Below, one piece after another: positions 4,293-12,283 of a stretch of 20,273 nt of DNA; the first letter of the stretch is position 1; the number at the start of each line of letters is the position of its first letter. The translations under genes were made by a program, and so were the position numbers. The stretch comes from a virus, in IMG/VR virus record IMGVR_UViG_3300033074_002003. One strand, 5' to 3'. Under the pieces are notes generated by a model. The model did no database searches. It saw only the letters and a program-made list of their open reading frames with translations, and was not told the DNA's origin.

Positions 4293-4394
4293 CCCACTGT
4301 CCCGTGAAACGGACACCATCTTGCTCGTAGTTCGGTCAAACGGAAAGGGTTCACGTCTTGTTACGTAATGTTTCGTGTTGTGTAATATGTCTAC

Positions 4395-5048
4395 ATGGAC
4401 AACACGAAACGCTACATCTACTTCATTGTCAATCGCATAAACTCTAAACGATACGTTGGACAAACACGTGATTATGTAAAAAGATCTAAGCAACATTTTT
4501 CTGAGGGCAAGAAGGGTAGAAAACGACATCCACTCTACGATTCCATGTTTTCACACGGGATCGAAAATTTCGAATTTGTTGTGATACAAGAGTGTTGCGA
4601 AAATGACGTTGATGAGTGTGAGATAGCGTGGATTAAAGCATTGTGCACTCGTGATAGAAGATTTGGATACAATCTTACGCCGGGTGGTAGTGCAATGTCG
4701 AGTTGTGTCTATGAGAAAATTTCAAAATCAATGTCTGGTAGACATTTCACACCCGAACACAAGGCAAAAATAGCTCAAGCGTTGAGAGGACAAAAGAGAC
4801 CTCCTTTGAAAGTTGAGCACGTTGAAAAGATAAGAAAATTCAACTTAGAGTCGCCGCCCTTTGCGGGTAAAACTCATACTGTTGAAACGCGTGAGAAAAT
4901 ACGTTGCGCAAATTCCAAATTGACGCGTGAAATCGTGAAAGTGATTCGCGAAGAATTCAATAATGGAACATCTCGTAAAGAGCTTGCACAAAAATATCAG
5001 GTTTCGTATAGTGCAATCAAGAATATCGTTGCAGGTAGACGCTGGTGA
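4395..5048 (+). CDS. GIY-YIG homing endonuclease (I-TevI-like, with NUMOD-type repeats)
   Basis: N-terminal RYIYFIVNRINSKRYVGQT with the GIY-YIG signature, Arg (CTRDRRFGYN) and Glu. C-terminal repeated SGRHFTPEHKAKIAQA and GKTHTVETREKIR NUMOD3-like motifs and an HTH-like tail. AT-rich island directly after the tRNA array. Confidence 0.75.
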   Translation: MDNTKRYIYFIVNRINSKRYVGQTRDYVKRSKQHFSEGKKGRKRHPLYDSMFSHGIENFEFVVIQECCENDVDECEIAWIKALCTRDRRFGYNLTPGGSAMSSCVYEKISKSMSGRHFTPEHKAKIAQALRGQKRPPLKVEHVEKIRKFNLESPPFAGKTHTVETREKIRCANSKLTREIVKVIREEFNNGTSRKELAQKYQVSYSAIKNIVAGRRW

Positions 5049-6138: not shown

Positions 6139-6211
6139 GCTGTCATAGCTCAGCTAGAAGAGCGCCACTTTGGTACAGTGGAGGCCGCCGGTGCGATTCC
6201 GGCTGACAGCT
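6139..6211 (+). tRNA. tRNA-Thr(GGT), 73 nt
   Basis: Acceptor GCTGTCA/TGACAGC. D-arm TAGCTCAGCTAGAAGAGC. Anticodon stem CCACT/AGTGG with loop TTGGTAC. T-stem GCCGG/CCGGC with loop TGCGATT. Confidence 0.65.
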
Positions 6212-6216
6212 CCAAT

Positions 6217-6296
6217 CCCGTCGTCGTCCAATGGAAGGGCACCGGTCTACGAAACCGGGCAGAGATGCAATGCAGGTTCGAGTCCTGCCGGCGGGG
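6217..6296 (+). tRNA. tRNA-Arg(ACG) with an unusually long (13-nt) variable region, 80 nt
   Basis: Acceptor CCCGTCG/CGGCGGG with one G-U pair. D-stem GTCC/GGGC. Anticodon stem CCGGT/ACCGG with loop CTACGAA. Extra GCA-GAGA-TGC mini-arm before the T-arm GCAGG-TTCGAGT-CCTGC. Confidence 0.5.
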
Positions 6297-6462
6297 CAAT
6301 AGGCGACAGTCGTCGTCCACACCGAAGACTATGACTCGGACGTGTGAGCCGCTCGGAAGCCCGTGCAGAGGGAAGAGAGCGGAAAGTGCCGAGGGCTGTC
6401 GCACTAGCTCGGAGCACCGAAGACAAGTGCTGTAAGTGGGTTGCTCCGCGATGCGGCACTCT

Positions 6463-7304: not shown

Positions 7305-7380
7305 GGTGGTGTTAGCCTAGTGGTTAGGGCACTCGAATGTGACTCGAGAAATTCGCACGGTTCGATTCCGGCACATCACC
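7305..7380 (+). tRNA. tRNA-His(GTG) with G-1, 76 nt
   Basis: Acceptor GTGGTGT/ACATCAC, preceded by G-1, which can pair with discriminator C. This is the His hallmark. D-stem GCCT/GGGC. Anticodon stem CTCGA/TCGAG with loop ATGTGAC. The T-loop TTCGATT is present but the T-stem is weak, at 3 bp. Confidence 0.6.
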
Positions 7381-7393
7381 CTATGTAGCTTAC

Positions 7394-8272
7394 ATGCTTA
7401 GAACGTGTGATTATTGTGACTTGACTGATGACTTTAATAGCGTTCAATCTTGGGCAGCACACCGTTCGAATTGTATAAAAAATCCCAATCGAACAGCGAA
7501 GCTGGCGAGAATGAGTGAATCGGCAGCCAAAGTTTCACGTAAAATCCTTGCTTTGACGTGTAGTTGTGGTTCGCTATTTTCCATAGAAGTCACAGACGCT
7601 GAAATTACGCGTGGTGCACATAGACACTTCTGTTCGCGGCAATGTGCAAATCGTCGTCAGCATTCGTCTGAAACCAAACAGAAAATTTCGCAAAGTGTTT
7701 CCAGATTTTTTCCCGAATCTATTTCTGTCGAAGTTGAATGTGCCGAGTGCAAGCGTAAATTCGTTGGTAAAACAGGAAGAACGTGTTGTTCACAACAGTG
7801 CGCTCGCGTAATCAATAATCGAAAAAGAATGATTGCAGCACAGTTGCCAGAAACTAGAGCAAAGATCGCAGCGAAGACTTTAGAGGCTTATGCTAACGGT
7901 CGCGAACAGTGTGGTGGGCGAACGAAATGGTTTGATGTTTACACGCTTCGATACGGCAAAATTCGTGTGCAAGGGACGTATGAAGTTCGAGCGTGTCAAA
8001 TTCTTGACAAGATGCTTGCTTCTGGAGAATTGATCGCGTGGGAATATACACGAGCTAGATTTCCTTATGTAGACACGTCTGGCAAACAACGTATGTACAG
8101 ACCGGATTTCAAGCTTGTTTATCCTACACACGAAGAATTTGTTGAAACGAAGGGATTTTCAACACCAAATGACGAACGCAAATGGGAAGCTCTTCGTTTG
8201 TTGGGTCATCATTTGTCAGTGTGGCGTGAAGCTGATCTCAAACAACGTGAATCTAAAGAGCATATGTCCTGA
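7394..8272 (+). CDS. putative free-standing nuclease with a PD-(D/E)xK / Vsr-like (DUF559-like) C-terminal domain and two N-terminal Cys-rich C..CAR modules
   Basis: The C-terminal YEVRACQILD..WEYTRARFPY..YRPDFKLVYPTHEEFVETKG matches the PD..(D/E)xK arrangement. HFCSRQCANRRQ and TCCSQQCARVINNRK resemble the GRFCSKKCARAFS module of the two HNH genes. AT-rich island between tRNA-His and downstream genes. Confidence 0.5.
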   Translation: MLRTCDYCDLTDDFNSVQSWAAHRSNCIKNPNRTAKLARMSESAAKVSRKILALTCSCGSLFSIEVTDAEITRGAHRHFCSRQCANRRQHSSETKQKISQSVSRFFPESISVEVECAECKRKFVGKTGRTCCSQQCARVINNRKRMIAAQLPETRAKIAAKTLEAYANGREQCGGRTKWFDVYTLRYGKIRVQGTYEVRACQILDKMLASGELIAWEYTRARFPYVDTSGKQRMYRPDFKLVYPTHEEFVETKGFSTPNDERKWEALRLLGHHLSVWREADLKQRESKEHMS

Positions 8273-8284
8273 GAGGACACGACA

Positions 8285-8524
8285 ATGAACTGTTCGGTGG
8301 CGCTACGCAACACAATGGCAAACATCGCGCTCGATGCGTTCCCGTTCGCCACGGGCGCGTGGACAGACGGCGATCGCGTGGTCGTGTACGTTAGCGACGA
8401 CCACGACCTCACCGACCAGAGGTCAGGCGACGCGACGTTCAGGTTTCCGGAGTTCGACGGCGAGTCAGTGAGAGAAATTTCGAGGCCCGTCACCATCGAA
8501 TTCGTGAGACACTCGTTCACGTAG
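8285..8524 (+). CDS. hypothetical protein (79 aa)
   Basis: GAGAGGACACGACA precedes the ATG. High GC3. Confidence 0.45.
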   Translation: MNCSVALRNTMANIALDAFPFATGAWTDGDRVVVYVSDDHDLTDQRSGDATFRFPEFDGESVREISRPVTIEFVRHSFT

Positions 8525-8584
8525 CTTAATTGGTAAAGCACCGCATTTTGGCGGAGGCTGTGAGTTCGAATCTCATCGTGAACA
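8515..8584 (+). pseudogene. degenerate tRNA-like gene (70 nt) with a 4-bp anticodon stem and a 6-nt loop
   Basis: Acceptor GTTCACG/CGTGAAC is perfect. D-stem GCTT/AAGC. T-arm GTGAG-TTCGAAT-CTCAT. The anticodon arm is CCGC-ATTTTG-GCGG, which is 3 nt too short. Overlaps the stop of the 8285..8524 CDS. Confidence 0.35.
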
Positions 8585-8586
8585 CA

Positions 8587-8889
8587 ATGTGGGCAACATC
8601 ATACATAGAAGCGCTGCGCGCGGGTGAGACGGTGTCTTTTAGGCCCCGTGGGAACTCGATGCGTCCAAAGATCGAGTCCGGACAGCTTGTCACTGTCTCG
8701 CCCGTCGGCGAGCGCGAGCTGCAAACGGGAGACATCGTCTTGTGCAAGGTTTCTGGTCACCAGTACCTGCACATCATCACCGCCATCGATCAGGACGGCA
8801 GGTGCCAGATCAGCAACAACAGGGGTCACATCAACGGGTGGGCACAGCGACAGAATGTGTTCGGCGTTGTCGTGAAGGTAGAGGACTGA
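8587..8889 (+). CDS. S24-family (LexA/UmuD/signal-peptidase-like) peptidase domain protein
   Basis: GNSMRPKIESGQLVTVSP...GDIVLCKVSG resembles the S24 Ser-Lys dyad motifs (GxSMxP ... GDxVxxK). Start moved to ATG 8587, after the tRNA-like element. The track ORF starts at 8530. Confidence 0.45.
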   Translation: MWATSYIEALRAGETVSFRPRGNSMRPKIESGQLVTVSPVGERELQTGDIVLCKVSGHQYLHIITAIDQDGRCQISNNRGHINGWAQRQNVFGVVVKVED

Positions 8890-8895
8890 GAGAGC

Positions 8896-8982
8896 GGGAG
8901 ATTAGTTCAGAGGAAGAACGCGTCCCCTACAAGGACGATGCCCTTAGGGTTTACACAGGTTCGAATCCTGTATCTCCTACCA
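8896..8982 (+). tRNA. orphan type-II tRNA with anticodon loop CCTACAA (TAC by standard numbering, C33) and an encoded 3' CCA; isotype uncertain
   Basis: Acceptor GGGAGAT/ATCTCCT. D-stem GTTC/GAAC. Anticodon stem CGTCC/GGACG is perfect. 17-nt variable arm GCCC-TTA-GGGT. T-arm ACAGG-TTCGAAT-CCTGT. Discriminator A, then CCA. Confidence 0.45.
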
Positions 8983-9019
8983 CACCTAGTGTTCACATAG
9001 TTCGATATAACTATCGTTC

Positions 9020-9622
9020 ATGAAATGTGAACGCTGTCAAGTTGAACACAGTGGGACGTATGGTTCGGGAAGATTTTGCACAGTCAAGTGTGCGAGATCT
9101 TTTTCAACAGCGTCTACTTCTGAAAAACGTTCAGAGATCAACAAACGAGTATCAGCGACACTAACGCAACCGCCAAAAGTAGCGACCTGTTGCATGTGTA
9201 ACACGCGGTATGAAACGCGACATCAGCGTTCTACATGTTGTAGTAAAGAGTGTCGAAAAGCTCGTAAAGCTCAAGTACAACACAACGTAACTAGAGAACA
9301 AAGAATCGAATTGGGCATCAAGAGTTCCTTTGGCAAATATGTTCGAAATCCGACAAGTTTGTATGATTTGAGCAACCGAACAATCAGTAAGATTCTTACA
9401 AGACTCGGAATCGGGTGTTCTTTGTGTGGTTGGTCTGCTGGAAAGTGTGACATTCATCACATTCGTGGTCGGAAAATTGAAGAAGCAGACAGACACGAAA
9501 ATTTGGCCTACGTGTGTCCAAATTGTCACAGGCTGATTCACAACAAGAAAATCAAGATTGACAGTCTTGTATCACTTCAAGATCAGATTGGTGATCGCTG
9601 GAAAGAGCTCTATTACGGTTAA
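9020..9622 (+). CDS. HNH homing endonuclease, a paralog of 361..1080
   Basis: N-terminal MKCERCQVEHSGTYGSGRFCTVKCARSFS. HNH motif CDIHHIRGRKIEEADRHENLAYVCPNCHRLIHN. AT-rich. Confidence 0.75.
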   Translation: MKCERCQVEHSGTYGSGRFCTVKCARSFSTASTSEKRSEINKRVSATLTQPPKVATCCMCNTRYETRHQRSTCCSKECRKARKAQVQHNVTREQRIELGIKSSFGKYVRNPTSLYDLSNRTISKILTRLGIGCSLCGWSAGKCDIHHIRGRKIEEADRHENLAYVCPNCHRLIHNKKIKIDSLVSLQDQIGDRWKELYYG

Positions 9623-9623
9623 G

Positions 9624-10013
9624 ATGAAAGTACTGATTTCTGGCGATCGAGAGTGGACGGACGTCGAGACTATTGTTGCTGCACTCGAGATGCTCCCGCC
9701 CGGGTCTGTCATCGTTCACGGCAACTGTCGGGGCGCTGACATCATTGCTCGCGAGTGTGCGATCGCAATGGGCATCGAGCACAGGTCCTACCCCGCGAAG
9801 TGGCACTTGTACGGAAATTCGGCGGGCGCGATTCGCAACAGAGAGATGGTTCGCGAGGAACACCTGTCAGAAGAGCCCATTGAGCTGGTGCTGGCGTTTC
9901 ACGACTCACTCACAGAAAAAAGCAAGGGAACGAGAGACATGGTAACCGTTGCTGAGGCTGTGGGAATTCCCTGGGTGCTTTGCCTGTCCGCCGCGAAGCG
10001 CGCGAATATGTAA
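9624..10013 (+). CDS. SLOG / DUF2493-like (YspA-like Rossmann) protein
   Basis: MKVLISGDREWTD...VIVHGNCRGADIIARECA...YPAKWHLYGNSAGAIRNREMV matches the phage DUF2493/SLOG signature (GxxxGAD ... GPIRN). Start set at ATG 9624, just after the HNH stop. The track ORF starts at 9558 inside the HNH gene. Confidence 0.5.
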   Translation: MKVLISGDREWTDVETIVAALEMLPPGSVIVHGNCRGADIIARECAIAMGIEHRSYPAKWHLYGNSAGAIRNREMVREEHLSEEPIELVLAFHDSLTEKSKGTRDMVTVAEAVGIPWVLCLSAAKRANM

Positions 10014-10020
10014 GAGAGCA

Positions 10021-10506
10021 ATGTCGTCGCTTCGCACCTTCGTGCAGATTCTCGTCGAGAGGGTGGGTGCTCCGCTACCAGACGAGGCGATTAGTGCGAT
10101 CGTGGGGGAGTACGCAGAGTCGCCGAAGCACCCTGAGATGCGACTCACGTGGAAGTGGGGCTCTGTTCACAGCGGCAGGCGCGTTCCCGGGTGGGGAGCG
10201 TACGTTCCCGACGATTTCGCGATTGTGATGAAGAGGTCGAGGGGAGCGAGCCCAGAAGATTTTGTCCTGACGCTCCTGCACGAGCTCGAACACTACAACC
10301 AGCACGTGAGAATGGCAGATGAGCTCCCGCAGGGCGCGACGAGGCAGGAGATCGTCGACGCATGGACAGAGTCGTACGGCGGGGCACTGAACACCTCGTC
10401 CTACGATGATAATATGTACGAGGTCTCAGCAGAGGCATTTGCACAGTCAGAGTTGGAGAACGCTCTGCAGATCGCTGGGATCACCCCGTCGTGGCCGAAT
10501 GGATAG
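10021..10506 (+). CDS. putative zinc metallopeptidase (HExxH)
   Basis: LTLLHELEHYNQH HExxH motif. Start set at ATG 10021, after AAGAGAGCA. Confidence 0.4.
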   Translation: MSSLRTFVQILVERVGAPLPDEAISAIVGEYAESPKHPEMRLTWKWGSVHSGRRVPGWGAYVPDDFAIVMKRSRGASPEDFVLTLLHELEHYNQHVRMADELPQGATRQEIVDAWTESYGGALNTSSYDDNMYEVSAEAFAQSELENALQIAGITPSWPNG

Positions 10507-10510
10507 GCAC

Positions 10511-10559
10511 CTCCCTCCGAAGGAGACTCACGCAGGTTCGAATCCTGCCGAAGGGGCCA
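10511..10559 (+). pseudogene. tRNA 3' fragment: short hairpin CTCC-GAA-GGAG, T-arm GCAGG-TTCGAAT-CCTGC, acceptor strand, discriminator and encoded CCA
   Basis: The T-arm is identical to that of tRNA-Asn at 4268-4284. No acceptor 5' partner lies within 90 nt upstream. Confidence 0.4.
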
Positions 10560-10570
10560 TAGTTACAAAT

Positions 10571-10657
10571 GGGAATCTAGCTCAAAGTCCGCGTCAGCGG
10601 GGGCAGAGCGGTCCGTTAGTAAGCGGACAGGTCCCGGTTCGAGCCCGGGGATTTCCT
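10571..10657 (+). tRNA. atypical 87-nt tRNA-like gene (perfect acceptor and T-arm, 8-nt anticodon-type loop TTAGTAAG, hairpin inserted in the D region)
   Basis: Acceptor GGGAATC/GATTTCC. T-arm CCCGG-TTCGAGC-CCGGG. Stem GTCCG/CGGAC closes an 8-nt loop. The D region GCTC...GAGC encloses an extra 5-bp hairpin, TCCGC-GTCA-GCGGG. Confidence 0.35.
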
Positions 10658-10661
10658 CAGA

Positions 10662-11195
10662 TCACTTGTCGGTGCGTGGGATGGGAGGTTTTGCCGCGAC
10701 GGACGAGACTCTCTTTGTCTGTGTGCTGTCGTTCTTCGTGAGCGCCTTGTGAATCGCCGTCGGGCGAGGTGGCGGAGCGGTATCGCCCGTGTGGACCTCG
10801 CGGAGGCTCGGTATCGAGATCTTCTTTACGTTTGACTCGAGTGCAGCCTCGATTTCAGAGATTCGCCTCTGCACCTCGACGTACTTCGCGAGGAGCGCGT
10901 CGTAGTCCTCGCGCTGCGACGCGATCGTCGACATGAATGTCGTGTAGCCCGCCTGCGCATCTTTGATGTCGTTCAGCATGAAAGCGGCGTCCCGGCGCAG
11001 CTCGTTCAACTGAGCCTCCAGTGCCTGGTTTTCTTTCGTGGCCGTAAATCCGGTGACGATCTCTTCCTTTACGCGCCACAGCAGGTAGATCACGATCAGT
11101 CCGATAGCGAGCGCTCCCACCTTGATGCAGAGGTCTAGGAGGACTGGGTCGACGAAACGACCGAAATCGAACTGCGAGGCCGAGGACAAAAACAT
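10662..11195 (-). CDS. membrane-anchored coiled-coil protein (N-terminal transmembrane helix, type-II topology), the only minus-strand gene
   Basis: Hydrophobic LLDLCIKVGALAIGLIVIYLLW. Heptad-like ALEAQLNELRRDAAFMLNDIKDAQAGY. Pro-rich tail. Start set at the internal Met (ATG at 11195-11193 on the minus strand) because the listed start, 11285, would overlap tRNA-Ser(GCT) on the + strand. Confidence 0.45.
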   Translation of the reverse strand: MFLSSASQFDFGRFVDPVLLDLCIKVGALAIGLIVIYLLWRVKEEIVTGFTATKENQALEAQLNELRRDAAFMLNDIKDAQAGYTTFMSTIASQREDYDALLAKYVEVQRRISEIEAALESNVKKISIPSLREVHTGDTAPPPRPTAIHKALTKNDSTQTKRVSSVAAKPPIPRTDK

Positions 11196-11221
11196 GACAA
11201 AGTGTAAGTATTGAACGACAC

Positions 11222-11309
11222 GAGAACGAATGGAAGCATACTCAAGAGGCTGACGAGATCCGACTGCTAATCGGATGTGTCCCATAAAGGCACCGCGGGT
11301 TCGAATCCC
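11222..11309 (+). tRNA. tRNA-Ser(GCT), type II, 88 nt
   Basis: Acceptor GGAAGCA/TGCTTCC is perfect. Anticodon stem TCCGA/TCGGA with loop CTGCTAA. Variable arm GTGTC-CCATAAA-GGCAC. T-arm GCGGG-TTCGAAT-CCCGC. Confidence 0.65.
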
Positions 11310-11364
11310 GCTGCTTCCGCAAATCTGAACACCACCCAGTAGAGCGGTATGATAGGACGGACAG

Positions 11365-11454
11365 TCACACTGTTGGAGGCGTGGTGGAGTGGTCGATCAC
11401 GTCCGTCTTGAAAACGGAAGATCGGTGATGAGCCGGTCCGGGGGTTCGAATCCC
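11365..11454 (+). tRNA. tRNA-Ser(TGA), type II, 90 nt
   Basis: Acceptor GGAGGCG/CGCCTCC is perfect. 3-bp D-stem with a long loop. Anticodon stem TCCGT/ACGGA with loop CTTGAAA. Variable arm CGGT-GATGA-GCCG. T-arm GGGGG-TTCGAAT-CCCTC. Confidence 0.7.
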
Positions 11455-11596
11455 TCCGCCTCCGCAAATTCTGTACAAACCGCTCTCAGTGAGCCATAAT
11501 GAGCATGACCTGAAAATTGTCGCCGAGAACCGAAGTTTTCGGTGTCACCCATCACACCGTGTGTTACAACAGTCACTCTTGGAGGAGTGATACGCA

Positions 11597-12283
11597 ATGG
11601 AAGACACTGCTGTCGCAGAAGACGCTGTTGACGATGACATCAGCGTCTCGATGCCCGATGATGTCGTTCCCACAGAACCCCGTCCCGCGTGGAAGCCCGA
11701 TATCAGCGCGCTGCCGAACGCCTACGAGTGGGTGGGTGGAGAGCCGCGCCTCCTTGTTGGCGTGAAAGACAAGATTGTCATCGACTACTCTGCGCTCGAG
11801 GCGGGACTGTTCCTCGACACGAGGTGTTGGGTGATCGACAAGGTGGGCGAGGACGGGTACCTCGGTCTCTACGATCCACACCAGCGACAGTACGGGTGCA
11901 CGAACTGGATCACCGGTCCGAAGCGGGGACTTCTCATCAAGATTCCCGGTTCTGCGAGCGACCTCGTCGGTGTGGGCGTGATGTCGCGCAAGGGAGCGAG
12001 GAGAGCGGTGGCGCGAGCCCTGAAAGAGCAGCGCGCGGCGGACGAGGCCGCTACGAAGAAGACTGCTGATGCACCCGGTGGAGAGAAGAAGCGCGGGAGG
12101 GGTAGGCCGAAGGGGACGATCAACAGCAAGACGCGAGATCGCCTCGTTGCTGCGGGTCACGATCCCGCGAAGCTCACGAAACAGCAGATCGACGAAATCA
12201 TGGCGGGAATTCGCAAAGCTGAGTACGAGAACGCGAAGGCAGAGAAACGTAGGCTGAAGGAACTGAAGAAGGACGGACGATGA
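11597..12283 (+). CDS. hypothetical DNA-binding protein with an AT-hook (GRGRPKG) and a Lys/Arg-rich C-terminus
   Basis: Strong SD GGAGGAG 8 nt upstream. KKRGRGRPKGT AT-hook motif. Acidic N-terminus. Confidence 0.55.
   Translation: MEDTAVAEDAVDDDISVSMPDDVVPTEPRPAWKPDISALPNAYEWVGGEPRLLVGVKDKIVIDYSALEAGLFLDTRCWVIDKVGEDGYLGLYDPHQRQYGCTNWITGPKRGLLIKIPGSASDLVGVGVMSRKGARRAVARALKEQRAADEAATKKTADAPGGEKKRGRGRPKGTINSKTRDRLVAAGHDPAKLTKQQIDEIMAGIRKAEYENAKAEKRRLKELKKDGR

Follow-up and report, generated by a model that had tools for sequence, protein, structure and literature searches.

Two atypical tRNA genes in a phage tRNA array

We analyzed two atypical transfer RNA (tRNA) genes, tRNA1 (8515–8584) and tRNA2 (8896–8982), in a 20,273-nucleotide (nt) stretch of viral DNA (IMG/VR virus record IMGVR_UViG_3300033074_002003; the whole stretch is called the window). 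ARAGORN finds 26 tRNA or tRNA-like genes on the window's + strand, and the window is part of the tRNA array of an uncultured phage, probably a jumbo phage, since the HNH protein encoded at 9020–9622 is also encoded on a 329-kb contig. The two genes are separated by an S24-peptidase-like gene (8587–8889), whose identical protein is encoded on 12 metagenome contigs, and tRNA2 is followed by a spacer (8983–9019) and the HNH gene. No near match to the window was found among GenBank phages, where distant matches occurred at the level of tRNA-Ser only. Some metagenome contigs are near-identical to the window and carry tRNA2 with the HNH gene (HNH-plus: L041, L042, L044, and L058), and others are near-identical without the HNH gene (HNH-minus: L037, L038, and L040). 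A sister lineage (L242–L245), reached through an 85%-identical homolog of the open reading frame (ORF) at 8285–8524, is 84–94% identical to the window DNA.

Both genes had been proposed at these positions in an initial annotation made from the letters alone, and both are tRNA-like far beyond chance. In a search of 601 nt against the Rfam tRNA family (RF00005, gathering threshold 29 bits), tRNA1 scored 60.1 bits (E = 1.6e-12) and tRNA2 scored 57.2 bits (8896–8979, E = 1e-11).

tRNA2 (+ strand) is 84 nt long with an encoded CCA behind it, and its sequence is GGGAGAT-TA-GTTC-AGAGGAA-GAAC-G-CGTCC-CCTACAA-GGACG-ATGCCCTTAGGGTTTAC-ACAGG-TTCGAAT-CCTGT-ATCTCCT-A-CCA. ARAGORN calls it Val(tac), and this call and the Rfam alignment agree with the initial annotation that the anticodon by standard numbering is UAC, preceded by C33: the loop CCUACAA is C32, C33 (8927), U34, A35, C36 (TAC at 8928–8930), A37, and A38. 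The acceptor stem has 7 base pairs (bp), the T stem 5 bp, and the D stem 4 bp with a 7-nt D loop; the first pair is G1·U72, position 15 is G, and the discriminator is A73. The minimum-free-energy fold is the cloverleaf, with all stems intact. A long variable arm had also been described, and the variable region (8938–8954, +, ATGCCCTTAGGGTTTAC) is indeed 17 nt long, with a 4-bp hairpin (GCCC-TTA-GGGT, 8940–8950) in the fold; compared with type-I Val tRNAs it has 12 extra nt, seen as one clean 12-nt gap in the variable loop of all 8 other Val tRNAs in an alignment with tRNA2 (alignment A1). The encoded CCA, taken at first to be the only one here, is found as well on Thr(GGU) at 6139–6214 (...GCT-CCA) and Arg(CCG) at 10485–10559 (...G-CCA).

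tRNA1 (+ strand, 70 nt) reads GTTCACG-TA-GCTT-AATTGGTA-AAGC-A-CCGC-ATTTTG-GCGG-AGGCT-GTGAG-TTCGAAT-CTCAT-CGTGAAC-A, and ARAGORN reports 8515–8585 as tRNA-??? with a 2-nt 'anticodon' (tt). The fold shows an intact acceptor stem (7 bp), D arm, and T arm; all three had been called perfect, which is accurate for the acceptor and D arms, but the T stem contains one G·U pair. The anticodon arm is 3 nt short, as had been noticed, measuring 14 nt against the normal 17, with 4 bp (CCGC/GCGG) and the 6-nt loop AUUUUG. In a canonical elongator tRNA the anticodon stem is 5 bp long and the loop, which includes U33, is 7 nt, and with an arm of this length tRNA1 cannot present a 7-nt loop on a 5-bp stem.

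The HNH cassette and the valine identity of tRNA2

In the HNH-minus contigs, the block 8894–9623 (+; tRNA2, spacer, and HNH gene) is replaced by a canonical 73-nt tRNA-Val(UAC) (GGGACCATAACTCAACGGTAGAGTGCATTCCTTACAAGAATGAAGCTGTCGGTTCGAATCCGACTGGTCCTA), laid out as GGGACCA...CTTACAA...TGGTCCTA. The flanks of the window and L037 show one difference, at 8894, with 0 mismatches over 9624–12000, and the GC content of the block is 0.48 against 0.56–0.61 in the flanks. Because HNH-plus and HNH-minus contigs are identical outside the block, tRNA2 is allelic with an ordinary tRNA-Val(UAC), and in part of the population the phage's own canonical tRNA-Val(UAC) has given way to the cassette.

Sequence comparison likewise places tRNA2 among valine tRNAs. 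Its loop differs from the bacterial Val(UAC) loop CTTACAA only by U33C, and a comparison with 263 unique tRNAs (from the first 59 loci) puts it nearest to Val(UAC) and Val(GAC), whether its extra arm is counted or left out. G1·U72 (or A1-U72) together with A73 is common to tRNA2 and other phage Val(UAC) tRNAs. We searched 185,579 species genomes, one per bacterial or archaeal species, for the 19-mer of the tRNA2 D arm (TTAGTTCAGAGGAAGAACG) with the anticodon left unconstrained, and 56 of the 60 matches were type-I tRNA-Val (GAC or UAC), mainly the Val(GAC) of Synergistota, with Val(UAC) in L229 and L230. The main valine determinants, A35, C36, and A73 (PMC9976931), are all present. We conclude that tRNA2 is a class-I tRNA-Val body with a 12-nt hairpin inserted at the solvent-exposed part of the variable loop and a U33C change. 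Because the three determinants are intact, tRNA2 is most likely still charged by valyl-tRNA synthetase (ValRS), and its helices, loops, and identity nucleotides suggest that it most likely still works as a valine tRNA reading GUA and GUG. Across loci L180–L238, the D arm of tRNA2 (GTTCAGAGGAAGAAC) is nearly confined to Synergistota tRNA-Val, with a few occurrences in Atribacterota and Caldisericota, a distribution that is a possible hint at the host range of the cassette-donor phage.

The long arm had earlier suggested the architecture of Leu, Ser, or Tyr tRNAs. This stands for the length of the variable region, which at 17 nt exceeds both the 4–5 nt of class I and the 10 nt from which class II begins (C33 likewise departs from the U33 of class I), but not for the body, the D arm, or the core, which are those of a class-I tRNA-Val. 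The same features, with the determinants and the Val nearest neighbors, contradict the suggestion of a decaying Tyr or Leu gene, and the structure-aware tools did not re-register the anticodon to Tyr(GTA) or Leu: read in the normal register it is UAC, a valine anticodon. The 7/5 geometry is also different from the 8/4 or 9/3 geometry of allo-tRNAs and tRNA-Sec. An intron, tRNA-Sec, and transfer-messenger RNA (tmRNA) were considered and rejected; ARAGORN makes no tmRNA call in the window, and tRNA is the only Rfam family in the region with E < 0.01.

A long arm on a valine anticodon could, in principle, make tRNA2 a mistranslating tRNA. Seryl-tRNA synthetase (SerRS) identity lies mainly in the long arm and that of leucyl-tRNA synthetase (LeuRS) in A73 and tertiary features, both independently of the anticodon (PMC9976931), so that the 17-nt region with its hairpin might recruit SerRS, or A73 might recruit LeuRS, and GUA would be read as Ser or Leu, in the manner of nematode nev-tRNAs or bacterial allo-tRNAs. 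If this were true, a selfish nuclease cassette would be the vehicle of a tRNA that causes this misreading of GUA in infected cells. We regard it as very unlikely, given the class-I body with its 4-bp D stem and G15-C48 type of core, without the A15-U48 or A20a of Leu; given A73 instead of the G73, and G1·U72 instead of the G1-C72, of Ser; and given an arm of only 3–4 bp. Moreover, the gene replaced at the same locus is an ordinary Val tRNA, and the ValRS determinants are untouched.

The initial annotation further raised the possibility of a natural suppressor or recoding tRNA, on the grounds that the loop contains CUA one position out of register. CUA does occupy positions 33–35 of CCUACAA, but it is merely C33, U34, and A35 of a UAC loop. 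Homologous loops are all NTTACAN with TAC at 34–36, the replaced allele is Val(UAC), and the anticodon is re-registered by neither ARAGORN nor Rfam. The unusual stop codon usage that such a tRNA might accompany was not found either: the 29 genes called on an HNH-minus contig (~20 kb of a roughly 329-kb genome) end in TGA (19), TAG (6), and TAA (4), and the TAG-terminated genes include the ORF that ends inside tRNA1. With TAG ending 6 of 29 genes there is no sign of amber reassignment, and amber suppression by tRNA2 is scarcely credible. A false lead is thereby removed, since stop-codon recoding is not present here.

The tRNA belongs to the mobile unit together with the nuclease gene, because the stretch between them is homologous across five cassettes. 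From the tRNA 3′ end to the HNH start these share CCTAC..ACACC..GTTCGAAT..GATATAT..ATG, and in their alignment (A2: window, L241, L050, L055, and L051) the columns CCTAC..ACAC..GTTCG..ATG are invariant. In the window, the spacer (8983–9019, +) holds the motifs ACACC and GTTCGAT (9000–9006), the latter T-loop-like. The free-standing HNH gene (9020–9622, +) encodes 200 amino acids with an N-terminal Cys-rich domain, and its product matches Pfam HNH (25.9 bits, cut-off 21.4) and PHROG 1271, HNH endonuclease (E = 1.8e-14). It matches HNH only, not the GIY-YIG that characterizes the SegB family.

This product is presumed to be a homing endonuclease tied to tRNA-Val(UAC). It has 334 homologs in a large protein database, and we looked up the contigs of several. 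All six looked up at 51–55% identity, P0002, P0003, P0004, P0007, and P0008 among them, lie 10–130 nt downstream of a tRNA-Val(UAC), as does the window's own HNH gene, and the Val(UAC)-linked homologs span at least four gene neighborhoods (RNase HII/SET, Kelch, PARG, and others). Homologs at 44–46% identity follow Asp, Lys, or Arg tRNAs. The Val copy of L241 has a tRNA2-like acceptor stem (GGGAGAT/ATTTCCT-A-CCA) and an Rfam score of 51 bits; ARAGORN misses it because its T loop (AGCGTAA) is aberrant. The Val copy of L056 has C33 and the T loop TCCGAGT. A peptide-pattern search of IMG/VR did not find the HNH gene, and D-arm pattern searches of IMG/VR found no close copy of tRNA1 or tRNA2.

The window and the sister lineage carry the cassette at the same site. 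tRNA2 is identical at 87 of 87 positions and the spacer at 36 of 37, and the HNH gene is 97.0% identical (18 changes, distributed 4/9/5 over the three codon positions). The flanking genes are more divergent: S24 is 93.7% identical, with 17 of its 19 changes at third positions, the YAcAr gene 90.8%, and the next ORF 91.4%. The contrast between 97–100% in the cassette and 91–94% in the flanks indicates that the cassette is mobile. The cassette has been shared between the diverged lineages more recently than their split and is much younger than that split, as for a homing element.

Long variable arms were also seen on tRNAs other than Leu, Ser, and Tyr in sampled phage loci, with four cases on Ile(UAU), three on Met(CAU), and others on Asn, Thr, Arg, and Cys. 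The long-arm Ile(UAU) tRNAs (90–92 nt) are on four unrelated contigs, several with the arm motif CAGATAA (L005 3609–3700, L063 2396–2486, L124 9046–9135, and L173 4717–4807), and the 92-nt Met/Ile2(CAU) tRNAs are on three (L075 6851–6942, L076, and L133). An 87-nt Asn(GUU) lies at L070 4737–4823, and the phage's own Arg(ACG) is 81 nt long (window 6217–6297). Since long arms recur on other tRNAs, tRNA2 is one case of a wider pattern, which, as far as we could find, is undescribed for phage tRNAs outside Leu, Ser, and Tyr.

Origin of tRNA1 and competing readings of the two genes

tRNA1 is probably a former elongator tRNA, to judge from its sequence probably Lys(UUU) and possibly Gln(UUG). ARAGORN guesses Lys, the body is closest to phage tRNA-Lys(UUU), and 11 of the 18 IMG/VR tRNAs that share the 22-mer of its D arm are Lys(UUU). 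The array includes Lys(CUU), and Lys(UUU) is absent from the sequenced part. One 3-nt deletion across the stem-loop junction turns 5 bp and 7 nt into 4 bp and 6 nt; for example, removal of positions 37–39 from CCGCA-UUUUGNN-UGCGG (UUG, a Gln loop) yields CCGC-AUUUUG-GCGG. A Lys(UUU) ancestor requires at least two events where a Gln-type loop requires one, so the original anticodon is uncertain. An origin of the arm by several mutations, which would imply selection, was dropped because one 3-nt deletion suffices.

The sister lineage bears out the term 'degenerate tRNA' under which 8515–8584 had been entered. There the interior of tRNA1 (window 8519–8577, 59 nt) is replaced by 'GT', and what is left, GTTC-GT-GTGAAC, comprises both ends of the acceptor stem; ORF79 and S24 are 5 nt apart after the loss. 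Because both acceptor-stem halves are kept in this remnant, the most natural reading is that a pre-existing tRNA gene was deleted in the sister lineage, as opposed to an insertion in the lineage of the window, and tRNA1 is dispensable there. With one lineage holding a crippled copy and the other a deleted one, the picture is that of a gene on which selection has ceased, and tRNA1 is probably a decaying tRNA gene. Its identity in 11 of 11 near-identical contigs is uninformative. One might speculate that the lesion is a repair scar or a resistance mutation after nuclease attack, given the fate of the neighboring tRNA genes.

We therefore regard as fairly probable the joint reading that tRNA2 is an HNH-cassette-borne tRNA-Val(UAC) replacing the resident copy and that tRNA1 is a decaying tRNA gene. 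Several observations weigh against it. U33C could impair function, and so could a long arm added to a class-I body; U33 is near-universal in tRNAs, and class-I bodies do not normally bear such an arm. The 87/87 identity of tRNA2 between lineages is weak evidence of constraint, because at a divergence of 3% only 2.6 changes are expected and the probability of none is ~0.07; perfect conservation in L242 was dropped as an argument, being insignificant by the cassette's own 3% divergence. The even spread of substitutions over HNH codon positions means that the nuclease may itself be decaying, in which case tRNA2 could be a dead passenger. As for tRNA1, it is pristine in every arm except the anticodon arm, and short-armed tRNA-like genes recur in other phage arrays; in two families of these (L061/L094 and L007/L014) the arm stays short in diverged phages whose T stems differ. 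An anticodon-less element in the window (10571–10658) is, moreover, identical at 88 of 88 positions between the lineages, with flanks at 87.5%.

The first of these points would fit tRNA2 as a non-functional passenger, crippled by U33C and the 12-nt insertion, with cassette-bearing phages relying on the host tRNA-Val(UAC). The aberrant Val copies of other cassettes (the T loop AGCGTAA in L241; C33 and the T loop TCCGAGT in L056) and the HNH substitutions without third-position bias point the same way, as does the rarity of GUA, the least used Val codon in the phage genes (21 of 294). Against it stand five perfectly paired helices, canonical T and D loops, the retained A35, C36, and A73, an insertion placed at the only point where a tRNA accepts an additional arm, and an acceptor that differs from that of the L003 relative by a compensated 4:69 change; the 0 changes in 87 nt between lineages also count on this side, subject to the expectation given above. 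C33, furthermore, is found in otherwise normal tRNAs of this phage and others: 13 of 440 unique ARAGORN-called phage tRNAs (all loci fetched) have it, and at least five tRNAs of this phage are non-U33, among them Leu(GAG), Gly(GCC), Gln(UUG), and a type-I GCU tRNA. We consider the passenger explanation unlikely, and a functional, cassette-borne tRNA-Val(UAC) remains the preferred reading of tRNA2.

The type-I GCU tRNA (73 nt; L037 2038–2110, ~250 nt upstream of window position 1) has an anticodon of the Ser codon family in the C33 loop CCGCTAG and is without the long arm normally needed by SerRS. The tRNA-Gln(UUG) at 165–236 has A33 (loop TATTGGT) and scores only 36 bits with Rfam; it adjoins a second ARAGORN '???(tt)' call (90–164), for which no Rfam match was found and which is probably no tRNA.

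For tRNA1, the observations listed above would fit a functional, non-decoding tRNA-like RNA, acting either as RNase P/Z 'punctuation' that releases the messenger RNA (mRNA) of the downstream S24-like gene or as a decoy for host nucleases that attack tRNAs. It scores 60 bits and has flawless acceptor, D, and T arms, and it is sandwiched between two ORFs with 0–2 nt to spare; because the S24-like ATG lies 2 nt past tRNA1, the gene could act as a processing signal. Phage tRNAs are known counter-defences (PMC10264068, PMC11555353). We also scanned IMG/VR for short arms, using a common D arm and a T arm spaced 22–23 nt apart against the usual 25–26, and obtained at least 120 loci. These include at least 46 distinct tRNA-like sequences in at least 30 acceptor-stem lineages that combine an intact acceptor and T stem with a 13–14-nt arm; among the matches listed, 18 of those 30 lineages have a clean mini-hairpin of at least 4 bp, several of them capped by GAAA, GAGA, or UUCG. 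Their Rfam tRNA scores are 50–60 bits, and many lie within tRNA arrays.

Against a function for tRNA1 in particular stand its deletion in the sister lineage, with the ORF79–S24 gap then 5 nt, and the sufficiency of a single 3-nt deletion to explain its arm. The scan was selected for shortened spacing and so catches simple deletion pseudogenes as well, and no ortholog of tRNA1 that maintains a short arm was seen. The short-armed sequences were accordingly dropped as proof of a functional class: the pattern was selected by spacing, arms of 5 bp and 4 nt can come from a single loop deletion, and the result is suggestive only. A non-decoding function for tRNA1 thus seems doubtful, and decay of the gene is preferred.

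The short-armed sequences in IMG/VR (L060–L179) are 69–70 nt long, with intact acceptor, D, and T arms and a 13–14-nt mini-hairpin, often 5 bp with a GNRA or UUCG tetraloop, or 4 bp with 5–6 nt; examples are L139 2611–2680, L161 9022–9091, L162 1372–1441, L105 2413–2482, and L151 2510–2579. ARAGORN misses 80 of the 120 loci (among the matches listed), and Rfam gives 40–60 bits on the 14 that were checked. They may be pseudogenes produced by deletion, or may represent an undescribed class of tRNA-like RNAs that lack an anticodon. On an unrelated IMG/VR contig (L159), one of them (9779–9848) lies 13 nt upstream of a ROOL RNA (9861–10430, Rfam RF03087, 283 bits). The window itself carries the 88-nt tRNA-like element mentioned above (10571–10658, +; ARAGORN ???, Rfam tRNA 38.1 bits), with a hairpin insert in the D loop and G3·U70 in the acceptor stem; its anticodon arm folds either as 7 bp with AGUA or as 5 bp with the 8-nt loop UUAGUAAG. 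Its 88/88 identity to the sister copy in L242, compared with 87.5% over the surrounding 880 nt, indicates strong constraint.

Gene starts 2–3 nt past a tRNA discriminator base are not limited to the S24-like gene after tRNA1 (8584–8589); the YAcAr gene after the canonical Val (L037 10382–10387) and the HNH gene after Gln(CUG) (318–324) share this arrangement. Processing of the tRNA 3′ end would in such cases yield nearly leaderless mRNAs.

The short loop of tRNA1 might alternatively allow abnormal decoding, by doublet reading or by −1 frameshifting on A-rich sites, with a 6-membered loop presenting UU(U)U. The loop AUUUUG does keep a run of U, and anticodon replacement by Bruce, Atkins, and Gesteland, in PNAS in 1986, reportedly tied shortened anticodons to doublet decoding. 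The stem, however, is also one pair short, so that the arm cannot bridge the usual span; the sister lineage has lost the gene; and no programmed frameshift site is known here. We judge abnormal decoding highly improbable, and again prefer decay. In the literature we found no relevant reports on 6-nt anticodon loops, anticodon-less phage tRNA-like RNAs, or tRNA decoys.

More distant relatives gave little to compare. Those that the S24-like protein brought up among IMG/VR and JGI metagenome contigs were 53–64% identical, and five of the six loci had no tRNA at all; in L002, which does have a tRNA array, no counterpart of tRNA1 or tRNA2 was found. Homologs of S24 in the large protein database were either 99% or at most 70% identical, the low-identity ones being mostly bacterial, and relatives of the DNA ligase in IMG/VR were only ~30% identical.

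Nuclease genes of the array and known systems

Free-standing homing-endonuclease genes have colonized the array, and all four nuclease genes of the window are in or adjoin tRNA genes. A second cassette (247–1080, +) consists of a variant tRNA-Gln(CUG) (247–319) and an HNH gene (322–1080) that is paralogous to the Val-linked one (E = 2e-16). Its insertion point in the resident tRNA-Gln(CUG) is exactly where variable loop and T stem meet, and the T arm and 3′ acceptor strand of the old gene persist at ~972–998, within the 3′ end of the HNH ORF. The tRNA-Gln(CUG) allele that this cassette brings is low in GC. A GIY-YIG endonuclease gene (4395–5048, +; Pfam GIY-YIG and NUMOD3) replaces a second tRNA-Asn(GUU) from about nucleotide 10, leaving ~9 nt of its 5′ end upstream (window 4325–5048 compared with L242 5152–5229); the sister lineage has two intact Asn genes and no GIY-YIG gene. 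An endonuclease-like gene of 292 amino acids (7394–8272, +; PHROG 15137, endonuclease, E = 4.4e-11) lies just downstream of tRNA-His, whose alleles in the two lineages have only the first 23 nt in common (window 7306–8272 compared with L242 7565–9998); downstream of His the sister lineage has unrelated genes, including one for an AAA_18 protein. The junctions of both the GIY-YIG and the His-linked nuclease fall inside tRNA genes.

These junctions bear on why the tRNA2 allele has the shape it has. By analogy with SegB and with the Gln junction, the Val-linked HNH enzyme would cut tRNA-Val(UAC) genes near the region of variable loop and T arm, and the cassette's own copy would have to differ there to escape cutting. 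A 12-nt hairpin, at a position that tolerates extra arms, may shield the cassette's copy from an enzyme cutting at that place and keep the fold, and the L241 and L056 copies, with their altered T loops, would fit the same idea. We offer tentatively, as a possible explanation, that conflict with the HNH enzyme selects changes in the variable loop or T arm of the cassette's own tRNA (self-immunity); it seems likelier than mischarging. If it were true, homing endonucleases would be a general driver of the odd tRNA shapes in phage arrays, such as long arms, aberrant T loops, and non-U33 loops.

The locus is a clean natural case of a homing endonuclease moving with a replacement copy of its associated tRNA gene: both alleles coexist in a single phage population, and a diverged sister lineage has the same cassette. 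The case points to a testable cause of odd tRNAs in phage arrays, in which nucleases that recognize conserved tRNA-gene motifs may select changes where the tRNA tolerates them. If tRNA2 is valylated, it is a natural class-II-shaped tRNA-Val, which would inform both the tolerance of synthetases for long arms and tRNA engineering.

Several known systems resemble parts of this locus. tRNA1 is similar to the tRNA pseudogenes of phage arrays in that its arm cannot decode and the gene is absent from the sister lineage; it differs in being intact save for the anticodon arm, and similar short-armed tRNA-like genes recur. Non-canonical loop nucleotides in otherwise normal tRNAs of the window phage recall phage tRNAs that evade nucleases. 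We know of no nuclease that targets tRNA-Val, and this link is speculative. Changes in the anticodon loops of phage tRNAs have been hypothesized to evade host anticodon nucleases in T5 and other phages (PMC10264068, which does not mention position 33), and the Septu defence cleaves tRNA-Tyr in its variable loop (PMC13096335).

With nematode nev-tRNAs and with bacterial allo-tRNAs, tRNA2 shares a long variable arm combined with an anticodon other than those of Leu, Ser, or Tyr. The nev-tRNAs have class-II architecture and are charged with Leu or Ser. Allo-tRNAs have class-II or 8/4–9/3 architecture and are likewise Leu- or Ser-charged (PMC7609411). tRNA2, in contrast, is a 7/5 class-I Val body with a hairpin, and is without G73, G1-C72, or the core features of Leu.

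As a mobile unit, the cassette is comparable to free-standing HNH homing endonucleases, which include the F-Tfl endonucleases of the T5 tRNA region. T4 MobE is another (PMC2790892). The HNH motif, the presence/absence polymorphism, the low GC, and a divergence lower than that of the flanks are common to this type and the window cassette; the difference is that in the window a gene for a structural RNA, itself structurally altered, travels in the mobile unit and stands in for the disrupted gene.

Of the systems already described, the nearest is that of SegB and its relatives, in which homing endonucleases are associated with phage tRNA genes. Encoded in the T4 tRNA cluster, the GIY-YIG enzyme SegB has a 27-bp site that includes the T-psi-C motif and promotes the preferential inheritance of itself and of adjacent tRNA genes in the T4 tRNA region (PMC2330249), and its homologs are significantly co-located with tRNAs (PMC13096335). 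Like SegB, the nuclease genes of the window are free-standing in a phage tRNA array, with one junction at the boundary of variable loop and T stem. Unlike SegB, the Val-linked enzyme is an HNH protein with a Cys-rich N-terminal domain; its clade is tied to one isoacceptor, tRNA-Val(UAC), whereas SegB has no isotype preference; and the cassette of this putative homing enzyme carries a tRNA copy of its own that has gained a class-II-like arm and replaces the resident allele.

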